A stretch of 23,396 bases of DNA, from IMG/VR virus record IMGVR_UViG_641522625_000005; one strand, 5' to 3'. The position numbers and the translations under genes are program-made. This stretch comes from a virus. Taxonomy: Duplodnaviria > Heunggongvirae > Uroviricota > Caudoviricetes. Shown piece after piece: positions 6,231 through 15,483 of this stretch. The notes below the pieces were generated by a model. It did no database searches. It saw nothing but the letters and a program-made list of their open reading frames with translations, and was not told where the DNA came from. Position 1 is the first letter of the stretch. Each line of letters starts with the position of its first letter.

Positions 6231-6399
6231 AATTATCTCCATTTTTACAAATGAACTTTGTTGATGCGGTGTCTGGTGCCTCCAGGTGACTGCAACCAGT
6301 TAACAATTACAGTCGGCTTTCCCACCCAAACCAATAAGGACTAACATGACTTTTAACTGTGCCACGTGCGCTTAGCCGCATTCACCGCATCACAAAATT

Positions 6400-6453
6400 C
6401 ACTTTAAAAAGGGCGGACATCAGCCGAACTTCAAGAAAAAAACTGATGCCGCC
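6400..6453 (-). terminator. Candidate intrinsic terminator on the minus strand (11-bp stem with one bulge, 19-nt loop, U5 tail)
   Basis: Arms GGCGGACATCAG (6412..6423) and CTGATGCCGCC (6443..6453); on the minus strand the stem is followed by CUUUUU (complement of 6401..6409). Lies in the kilR-sieB intergenic region. Confidence 0.3.
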
Positions 6454-13377: not shown

Positions 13378-13641
13378 ATGAGCGAGAAATTAAAGATAGT
13401 CTATCGCCCATTACAAGAATTGTCACCGTATGCGCACAACGCCAGGACGCACAGTACTGAGCAGGTGGCACAACTGGTAGAAAGTATTAAGCAATTCGGC
13501 TGGACTAATCCGGTGCTGATTGACGAAAAGGGCGAAATTATTGCGGGTCACGGTCGTGTTATGGCGGCTGAAATGCTCAAAATGGATTCTGTTCCGGTCA
13601 TTGTTCTGTCTGGCCTGACGGATGAGCAGAAGCAGCGATAA
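13378..13641 (+). CDS. ynaK: ParB-like nuclease domain protein fragment, 87 aa (likely C-terminally truncated)
   Basis: ATG at 13378; motif region ...WTNPVLIDEKGEIIAGHGRVMAA... resembles the ParB N-terminal domain; the ORF ends abruptly and overlaps the ydaY start. Confidence 0.7.
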   Translation: MSEKLKIVYRPLQELSPYAHNARTHSTEQVAQLVESIKQFGWTNPVLIDEKGEIIAGHGRVMAAEMLKMDSVPVIVLSGLTDEQKQR

Positions 13642-13981
13642 CGATCAGTATCGCTCCCGTAATGCATTAATCCGTCGCCACATTGAGAAAATGGATGCCA
13701 GTTTGCACGTCGGAACGAAGGAGTTTGATATTTCAAAGGTTTCCGAGGTGGATTCTGTTGATGATTTACTCATTGATAATGCCGCTCGTTATCTGCTGAA
13801 AGACTGGAAAGGGGTTGGTGAACTGGTTAATGGTGTTGAGGTTGCACTGGAATATACGGCAGAACGAGGGATCGCGCTGCTTAAGCAGAATCCAGAGTTG
13901 TACTGGCAGATCCTTGCAGAAGCAGCCAGCATCGCCCAGGGTAAAGAGCAGCAGAAGCAGGATACGATAAAAAAGCCATAG
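13622..13981 (+). CDS. ydaY: YdaY, candidate G-like tail assembly chaperone, 119 aa
   Basis: ATG at 13622; ends ...QDTIKKP with the slippery heptamer A_AAA_AAG at 13969..13975 just before the stop; lies upstream of the tape-measure remnant. Confidence 0.7.
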   Translation: MSRSSDNDQYRSRNALIRRHIEKMDASLHVGTKEFDISKVSEVDSVDDLLIDNAARYLLKDWKGVGELVNGVEVALEYTAERGIALLKQNPELYWQILAEAASIAQGKEQQKQDTIKKP

Positions 13982-14289
13982 CTGCCCAGCGGTGGTTATC
14001 GGAGTTCGGGGGAGAAAGGGGGGAAAAGGCAAGATGGAAGCGAGAAAAACTCAGGTTGCCACCGATACCGGAACCAGAAATAGACCCGGTGCTTAAGGAG
14101 TTGTTGTACGCCTATTCGGTAATATCCCGTGCCCGACGTTATGCTGGAATGGCTGGGGTGCCTTTGCCTTTATCTCTGACAGAGATAAATGAATATTTAG
14201 CCACTCATCCGGTATTGATTGAGCGCGATGAATTTGAAGCAGTGATCTTTGCACTGGATGACCAGTATTTTCAGGAGCAGTGTGTGTAG
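13975..14289 (+). CDS. -1 frame extension of ydaY (GT-like product, about 222 aa if the frameshift occurs)
   Basis: -1 frame is open from 13945 to the stop at 14287..14289 (104 codons after the slip site) and has no start codon of its own until a TTG at 14056. Confidence 0.45.
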   Translation, partial: AIAAQRWLSEFGGERGEKARWKREKLRLPPIPEPEIDPVLKELLYAYSVISRARRYAGMAGVPLPLSLTEINEYLATHPVLIERDEFEAVIFALDDQYFQEQCV

Positions 14290-14409
14290 TTGTTAATTAC
14301 GTACACTCTGTTACAGAGATGTGATGGTGTCTTTAATTAAATCGATGATGCTCCTGGAGAAAAGCATTGCGTGGCCTCGTAATCGCTATATCTACTATTA
14401 TGTCGCCTG

Positions 14410-14436
14410 AAACCCACTTCGCGGTGGGTTTTTTGT
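14410..14436 (+). terminator. Intrinsic terminator-like hairpin upstream of the tape-measure gene
   Basis: AACCCAC (14411..14417) / GTGGGTT (14424..14430), loop TTCGCG, followed by T6 GTTG. Confidence 0.45.
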
Positions 14437-14454
14437 TGTCAGGAGTTTTAATAA

Positions 14455-15483
14455 ATGGCAGAGCAAACCTCGCGTCTCGCAATAATTATTGATAGCACTG
14501 GAGCGAAAAATAATGCTGACAATCTGACCTCCTCATTAGTCAAAATGACGCAGGCTGGGGAAACTGCTGCAAATAGCGCAGGGAAAGTGACTAAGGCAAC
14601 AGAAGATGAGAAGAACGCGCTCGCAAAATTAAAAGCAGCTATTGATCCAGTTGGTGCCGCAATTGATACTGTCGGTCGACGCTATTCTGAATTAAAGAAA
14701 TTTTTCGATAAAGGGCTTATTGATAAAGAAGAATATGAATTTCTTGTCCGTAAACTTAATGAAACCACAGAGGAATTGAGCGGGGTTGCGCAAGCGCAGA
14801 GAGAAGCCGAGAAGGCCGGAAAACTTGCTGCCGCTCAGCAGGAAGCGCAGGCTCAGGCCTTTCAAAGAATGCTGGACAAGATCGACCCTCTGGCTGCGGC
14901 GCTAAGAAATCTTGAACAACAGCATGATGAACTTAATGCTGCGTTTGCATCCGGGAAAATAAATGGTTCTCAGTTTGAGAATTATAGCCGAAAAATACAG
15001 GAAACACGGCGAGAGCTTACCGGAGAGGCTCAGGCAGAGCGAGAAGCAGCAAAAGCGCATGATGAACAGGTTGTTGCTTTGCAACGTCTGATTGCTCAAC
15101 TTGATCCTGTCGGAACTGCTTTTAATCGTCTGGTAGAACAACAGAAACAGCTCAATGAAGCAAAAGCTAAGGGGATGCTTTCTCCTGAAATGTATGAGGA
15201 GCTTTCTGGAAAACTTCGTGCTATGCGGAGTGAGCTTGAGGTTACTCAATCACAATTAAGCAAAACCGGAATGTCGGCAAAACAAACGGCTTTTGCTATG
15301 CGCATGTTGCCTGCACAAATGACGGATATTGTTGTTGGGTTGTCCACTGGTCAGTCGCCATTTATGGTGTTAATGCAGCAGGGCGGCCATTCAGCTATGC
15401 AGGAGACAAGAATCGCCAGCTTACCCGTTACAGCGATACCCGCTGGCATGAAGATTCCGTGCGTAACCGCTGGTTCAGCGTGA
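14455..15483 (+). pseudogene. tmpR: Tape measure protein, N-terminal about 310 aa only (3' end deleted; ORF tail is out-of-frame lom DNA)
   Basis: ATG at 14455 with AGGAG RBS; coiled-coil-rich N-terminus and ...[13 protein letters not shown], recalled as similar to lambda H; similarity stops near 15385. Confidence 0.8.

Follow-up and report, generated by a model that had tools for sequence, protein, structure and literature searches.

The ydaY region of the cryptic prophage Rac as a probable 5′-truncated relic of a tail assembly chaperone gene pair with a conserved −1 frameshift site

The window analysed here, a 23,396 nucleotide (nt) stretch of viral DNA (Caudoviricetes; IMG/VR record IMGVR_UViG_641522625_000005), is in the region of interest 100% identical to Escherichia coli K-12 strains, in which this DNA lies inside the element annotated as “cryptic prophage Rac.” The region contains gene ydaY (locus b1366, around bp 1,425,621–1,425,980 of NC_000913.3) and, following it, a second open frame in the −1 register. 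We conclude, with a probability of roughly 0.88, that ydaY and the following frame are the relic of a tail assembly chaperone pair, called G and T here after the phage lambda genes, with a conserved −1 frameshift, and that the K-12 copy has been truncated at its 5′ end by a deletion and is not intact. The part that survives (13630–14289) amounts to the 3′ three-quarters of such a locus in a Rac-like siphophage. It has a two-frame architecture, a slippery site that is conserved among relatives, coding constraint in a −1 frame that lacks a start codon, and both the similarity and the genomic position of a gene of the chaperone class.

The ydaY open reading frame (ORF) begins with ATG at 13622 and ends with a TAG stop at 13979–13981. 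As a first-pass annotation of the window had pointed out, an AAAAAAG heptamer (13969–13975, plus strand) lies near the end of this frame; its phasing there, AT[A AAA AAG] CCA TAG, is the canonical X_XXY_YYZ arrangement, and −1 ribosomal frameshifting is predicted at this site. The −1 frame that had been described as open from 13945 to 14289 is indeed so, and it closes with TAG at 14287–14289. A slip at the heptamer would append the predicted 104-codon extension (AIAAQRW...QEQCV; the T frame, 13975–14289 with its stop, plus strand), giving a 222 amino acid fusion product, join(13622..13975, 13975..14289), with the junction peptide ...QQKQDTIKKAIAAQRW...; the corresponding product in intact relatives would have 252–256 amino acids. 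The only ATG, GTG, or TTG of the −1 frame ahead of its conserved core is the TTG at 14056, as the same annotation had it, and the distance it gave to the tape measure gene (about 165 bp) is exact, with 165 nt between the T stop and the ATG at 14455.

The homologous slip site was located in 24 relatives ranging from Escherichia to Acinetobacter, and in every relative the fused product was matched by tblastn as two pieces in two frames, at identities down to 31%. The −1 frame is open for 104–119 codons from the slip site in all 24. In 20 of them, the homologous site, at the N_NNA_AAG position, is either A_AAA_AAG (Escherichia, Shigella, Citrobacter, Klebsiella, Siccibacter, Dryocola, and Scandinavium) or lambda's own heptamer G_GGA_AAG (Raoultella, Serratia, Pantoea, Tatumella, and two Acinetobacter phages), and the four exceptions keep A_AAG. 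The residues encoded at the site vary (IKK, VKK, VGK, CGK) while its slipperiness is kept, and the lysine is an invariant column of the alignment. In the Acinetobacter phage TRS1, a distant homolog, the two frames are already annotated as one joined coding sequence (CDS).

The proposal that this is a G/GT-type chaperone upstream of a tape measure gene is backed by profile matches, by the gene order of the relatives, by the slip site and −1 ORF shared across genera, and by the coding signature of that ORF (see below). The ydaY protein matches PHROG 313, “Tail assembly chaperone” (E = 6.9e-37; profile positions 47–149 of 258), PHROG names being derived from depositors' annotation. The T extension matches the unnamed PHROG 1189 (E = 1.4e-36), as well as positions 173–246 of PHROG 313 (E = 0.0097) and PHROG 3817, “tail chaperonin” (E = 0.01); its match to the C-terminal part of the 258-position PHROG 313 indicates that this profile was built partly from joined products. 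It also matches Pfam Phage_TAC_18 (E = 4.7e-4, below the gathering score), and this weak match recurs in 6 of 21 family members. Scans of ydaY against Pfam and NCBIfam gave no match, the Pfam version used being one that predates PF27119; precomputed matches to PF27119, “Phage_YdaY,” exist for all the G-type homologs, including some that are 100% identical over the ydaY region. Nearly all the named structure matches in BFVD are tail or tape-measure chaperones, with modest TM-scores of 0.4–0.5, and the structural match to the HK97 chaperone (PDB 2ob9) is similarly modest, with 8% sequence identity and from a model with a predicted local distance difference test score (pLDDT) of 67.7. The family's proteins are mildly acidic (isoelectric points 5.0–6.2).

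An intact Rac-like prophage, that of NZ_CP180604.1 (L001 below), shows the position of the pair. There, P22-type capsid genes, a tail terminator gene, and a tail tube gene are followed by “ydaY,” a 77 amino acid “hypothetical” gene, a 3234 nt gene for a tape measure protein of 1077 amino acids, and lambda-like M, L, K, I, and J tail genes. Klebsiella, Erwinia, Pseudomonas, and Acinetobacter phages share the order of tube, G, T, and tape measure, in some cases with additional small ORFs ahead of the tape measure gene. The module is present at 98–100% DNA identity in isolated E. coli and Salmonella siphophages, and of 5426 complete E. coli genomes, 1586 gave a match to it. The window retains just the tape-measure flank of this arrangement, the tube gene having been deleted.

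The first-pass annotation had also concluded that ydaY would be an intact recoding gene, and this part of its interpretation is not supported. The authentic G gene has 149–153 codons, of which K-12-type genomes match only residues 38–153 (tblastn). Megablast matches break between query positions 331 and 332 (window 13630/13631), and other genomes carry ynaK alone, the portion from the chaperone onward alone, or the two of them at different sites. When K-12 is placed in a three-way alignment with NZ_CP180604.1, it consists of ynaK DNA up to ...GATGAGCAGAA and of chaperone DNA from AAGCAGCGATAACG..., the two overlapping by 2 nt, so that the deletion junction (13630–13631) lies at an AA microhomology. 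Since the chaperone homology starts at 13630, the start codon at 13622 belongs to ynaK DNA in another reading frame, and ydaY (13622–13981, plus strand) is a chimeric G frame made of three such codons, the ATG included, and chaperone codons 38–153. Complete Rac-like prophages have about 11.5 kb that is missing here, comprising the remainder of ynaK and the terminase, portal, head, tail terminator, and tail tube genes. The lost N-terminus of the chaperone, some 36 codons, includes residues that are invariant across genera (E17, R18, W19, P22, L32, and V36) and two predicted beta strands.

A case might still be made that K-12 ydaY is a complete and functional recoding gene wrongly held to be a pseudogene. 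Its ORF has an ATG, its heptamer and T frame are unbroken and identical to those of complete prophages, and RefSeq, through its prokaryotic genome annotation pipeline (PGAP), gives a 119 amino acid “protein YdaY” even in intact prophages. The last of these is annotation carried over from K-12, however; the intact chaperone frame in L001 is open for 34 codons upstream of the annotated TTG, to an ATG at L001:5891 or 5903 that follows a ribosome-binding site (GGGGGA or GAGG), and these codons are conserved across genera. Given an ATG (13622) that is ynaK DNA, the absence of a tail tube gene, and a truncated tape measure gene, a functional K-12 gene is very improbable. The K-12 copy is most likely a functionless relic; its slip site and T frame survive for the simple reason that mutation has not reached them yet.

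Deletions of this general kind are not restricted to K-12. Two further decayed Rac-like prophages, on other E. coli contigs, have in-frame fusions to the chaperone gene (L030:~6380–6410 and L032:~440–470); the left partners of the fusions differ, being a small-terminase-like N-terminus in protein P0009 and a large-terminase-like fragment in P0005 and P0007, and the right breakpoint is the same (...TAGACGGGTTAAAAC, codon 30). In all, at least five distinct deletions end in the first third of the chaperone gene, among them those of K-12 (codon 38), P0017 (ynaK joined at about codon 48), and P0006. Such clustering of endpoints could reflect ascertainment bias or a recombination hot spot.

The downstream frame could in principle be an independent small gene that begins at the TTG at 14056 (77 amino acids, as PGAP has it in some genomes), with no frameshift at all. 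It is annotated as a “hypothetical protein” of 77 amino acids in L001 and of 41 amino acids in ER1709, and gene callers have produced many other versions of it, of 60–138 amino acids; such scatter in the predicted starts suggests rather that this frame has no real start. Across the 27 codons from the slip site to TTG 14056, synonymous and nonsynonymous codon differences number 1128 and 1045 in the T frame, versus 273 and 2006 and 154 and 2010 in the other two frames, and third positions carry about twice as many differences as positions 1 and 2. These codons are conserved as protein, and the synonymous signature is found in the T frame only. No ATG, GTG, or TTG is present from 10 codons before to 31 codons after the slip site in 12 of 16 relatives. 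Coding constraint of this sort in a stretch without start codons means that the extension cannot be an independently initiated gene, and we give the separate-gene explanation hardly any weight. The small protein YnaM is not encoded in the T frame; ynaM is located between ynaE and ttcC.

The T frame might instead be reached by slippage of RNA polymerase on a run of A residues, or by reinitiation after ribosomes terminate at the G stop. The K-12 site does have six consecutive A residues, and its G stop is just one codon past the heptamer. However, about half of the relatives have G_GGA_AAG, whose three A residues are too few for transcriptional slippage, and these variants exclude that route. 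Depending on the relative, the zero frame closes between 0 and 29 codons past the heptamer, yet T-frame homology begins directly after the heptamer in all of them, which argues against termination and reinitiation, and there is no start codon close to the G stop. Both routes are therefore about as implausible as a separate downstream gene, and ribosomal frameshifting at the heptamer remains the preferred explanation.

Least tenable is the idea that decay of a defective prophage split a once-continuous gene by a frameshift mutation and that the heptamer is coincidental, a reading whose likelihood is close to nil: AAAAAAG is common by itself (11 copies in the window, counting both strands), but the two-frame layout and slip site are present in every relative examined, isolated phages included, and this conservation rules out a chance origin. 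The window has 43 stop-to-stop frames that are 100 or more codons long; their last 20 codons contain seven in-frame XXXYYYZ heptamers in all, and only that of ydaY opens a long −1 frame (101 codons past the stop, versus no more than 2 for the others).

A single natural in-frame G-T fusion was found, the 240 amino acid E. coli protein P0001, whose sequence includes ...ILAEAGYDKKAIAAQRW.... Its sequence matches what a 35 nt deletion between 10 nt direct repeats (GCAGAAGCAG; 13916–13925 and 13951–13960) would produce, and the fused state is thus derived; the prophage that carries it would yield a GT-like protein only and no free G. An AlphaFold2 model of P0001 was discarded as too poor (pLDDT 46). 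A second apparent fusion, the 220 amino acid P0002, was ignored because it reads the wrong frames and looks like a homopolymer sequencing error.

Several results weigh against the interpretation of ydaY as a chaperone relic with a conserved frameshift. Searches of the G and T profiles against PDB sequences found nothing meaningful, and comparison of lambda G and T with this family by hhalign gave a probability of 0.1% for both, that is, no detectable similarity. Four of the 24 relatives have noncanonical sites: C_GCA_AAG directly before a TAA stop in Erwinia phage Gungnir39 (L004:1986–1995), G_GAA_AAG in Pseudomonas phages phiPSA1 (L005:434–440) and Aurca01 (L006:1887–1893), and G_GGG_AAG in a Pectobacterium prophage (L020:1920–1926), so that A_AAG is the sole part of the site common to the whole family. 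Our literature searches turned up no proteomic, ribosome profiling, or reporter data on the fusion protein for the YdaY family. Finally, K-12 is identical to its intact relative from 13630 to 14460, and sequence decay is therefore of no use as evidence for loss of function; the description of the K-12 copy as functionless depends on its missing N-terminus and missing partners.

With regard to the noncanonical sites, it is a tentative possibility that the Erwinia and Pseudomonas phages make GT through sites that break the usual rule, only A_AAG (slippage of the lysine tRNA) being essential, perhaps aided in Erwinia by the adjacent stop. It is more speculative still that truncated G′ and G′T′ proteins of the K-12 relic might be translated and interfere with the tail assembly of superinfecting Rac-like phages.

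By analogy with lambda and HK97, most ribosomes that translate the 149–153 codon G frame downstream of the tail tube gene in intact relatives would pass N_NNA_AAG and terminate, and a minority would slip by −1 as the tRNA-Lys on AAG re-pairs with AAA. The slipped ribosomes would then read 104–119 more codons in the −1 frame to make the G-T fusion. If the proteins act as lambda gpG and gpGT do, G and GT would coat the tape measure protein, and recruitment of the tail tube protein would fall to the T part. In K-12, the ~11.5 kb deletion joined ynaK at about codon 85 to chaperone codon 38 and so created the chimeric ORF ydaY; the K-12 copy would still frameshift if translated, and its truncated product, if made at all, is presumably nonfunctional. 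No stimulatory RNA element was recognized downstream of the heptamer: the K-12 hairpin that follows it directly is no more stable than shuffled sequence (z = +0.91), and a 14-sequence RNA consensus of the region has a folding energy of −1.08 kcal/mol and no covariation. Given that no conserved downstream structure was found, the frameshift appears to rely on the heptamer alone. Lambda G/GT has likewise been reported to have no conserved downstream RNA structure.

Lambda gpG and gpGT are reportedly produced by −1 frameshifting at G_GGA_AAG (Levin et al. 1993; Xu, Hendrix and Duda 2004), and the YdaY family resembles lambda in several respects. Its intact relatives have the order of tail tube, G, T (in the −1 frame, with no start codon), and tape measure. 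The G stop follows within a few codons of the slip site, about half of the family uses exactly lambda's heptamer, and conserved stimulatory RNA structure is missing from both; the mild acidity of the proteins is a further shared trait. Unlike lambda, the K-12, Klebsiella, and Citrobacter members use A_AAA_AAG, the K-12 copy is 5′-truncated, and the family has no detectable sequence similarity to lambda G or T. In lambda, T overlaps H, whereas here the T frame and the tape measure gene are separated by the ~165 nt gap, which contains a terminator-like hairpin. Xu et al. (2004) described the conserved frameshift in tail chaperone genes, and PMC10885494 gives a summary of that work.

Three other systems are useful comparisons. 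In a cluster of HK97-like chaperone genes, −1 frameshifting was measured at 6–7% (PMC3711429); no link between the HK97 chaperone 2ob9 and the YdaY family was found at the sequence level. Acinetobacter phage vB_AbaS_TRS1 genes gp18 and gp19, the joined CDS mentioned above (“putative tail assembly chaperone”), are a true distant homolog, 31–39% identical in T and alignable in G. Their annotated −1 frameshift is at G_GGA_AAG; TRS1 differs from the K-12 locus in its host, in being intact, and in a zero frame that runs 26 codons past the slip site. The E. coli dnaX gene (tau/gamma) has the same heptamer, A_AAA_AAG, and the same tRNA-Lys slippage mechanism as would operate at ydaY (PMC9307594, PMC5389563). 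At dnaX, an upstream Shine-Dalgarno-like element and a downstream hairpin raise the frequency to ~50%, and the shift leads to early termination; at the ydaY-family site, by contrast, no conserved stimulators were found, and the shift adds 104 residues.

The significance of these observations lies mainly in annotation. A function, that of a tail assembly chaperone relic, can be assigned to an “uncharacterized” K-12 gene (ydaY, b1366), and a −1 frameshift signal has gone unannotated in the best-annotated bacterial genome. The first-pass annotation had referred to ydaY as annotated as a pseudogene, which is outdated; NC_000913.3 now lists it as a CDS, “putative uncharacterized protein YdaY,” with no slippage annotated. 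RefSeq has spread the 119 amino acid form over intact prophages, and it calls the T frame assorted “hypothetical proteins” where a joined CDS and a corrected G start would be appropriate. In L001, the segment that corresponds to window 13622–13981 (L001:5891–6352) is annotated by RefSeq/PGAP as the 119 amino acid “protein YdaY” from an internal TTG start at L001:5993, where the true gene has 149–153 codons; annotation of the intact gene seems to have been modeled on the truncated K-12 relic. A literature search on ydaY, b1366, and Rac together with frameshift or tail chaperone found no earlier description. The locus is an unannotated case of a well-known class of recoding, the textbook G/GT arrangement being expected in a long-tailed phage. 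The finding carries little biological weight, and in K-12 the copy is almost certain to be inert.

The gene order of K-12 in this region is trkG, ynaK, ydaY, ynaA, lomR (interrupted by IS5), and stfR. To the left of ydaY, ynaK (13378–13641, plus strand) forms the left flank of the Rac deletion; it is annotated as a ParB-like nuclease domain protein and retains 87 codons, the 5′ third of a gene whose products have 255–263 amino acids in relatives (the full frame is present in L009 and L030). It matches Pfam ParB_N (E = 2.7e-7) and positions 3–88 of the 217 of PHROG 620. Downstream of full-length ynaK in relatives lies a gene with a match to PF20691 (TAGT), followed by the terminase genes in the intact prophage.

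To the right, the tape measure fragment ynaA/tmpR (14455–15483, plus strand) encodes the N-terminal 342 of the 1077 amino acids of the tape measure protein, the chaperone's client (Pfam TMP_2, E = 4e-17; PHROG 3827, E = 2e-102), and RefSeq notes it as “missing C-terminus.” The 165 nt that separate this gene from the T frame contain a strong terminator-like hairpin (14409–14442, plus strand), GAAACCCAC-TTCG-CGGTGGGTTTT followed by a T run, whose sequence is identical in the intact prophage L001. A terminator at this point would lie amid the late tail operon, and it would either require antitermination or attenuate expression of the tape measure gene. In some relatives, small extra genes (for a membrane protein and hypothetical proteins) follow the T frame and precede the tape measure gene, as in Klebsiella (L003:2416–3251) and Pseudomonas (L006:2250–3507). 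Since these insertions occupy the same spot as the hairpin-containing spacer of E. coli, the position looks like a site of moron insertion.

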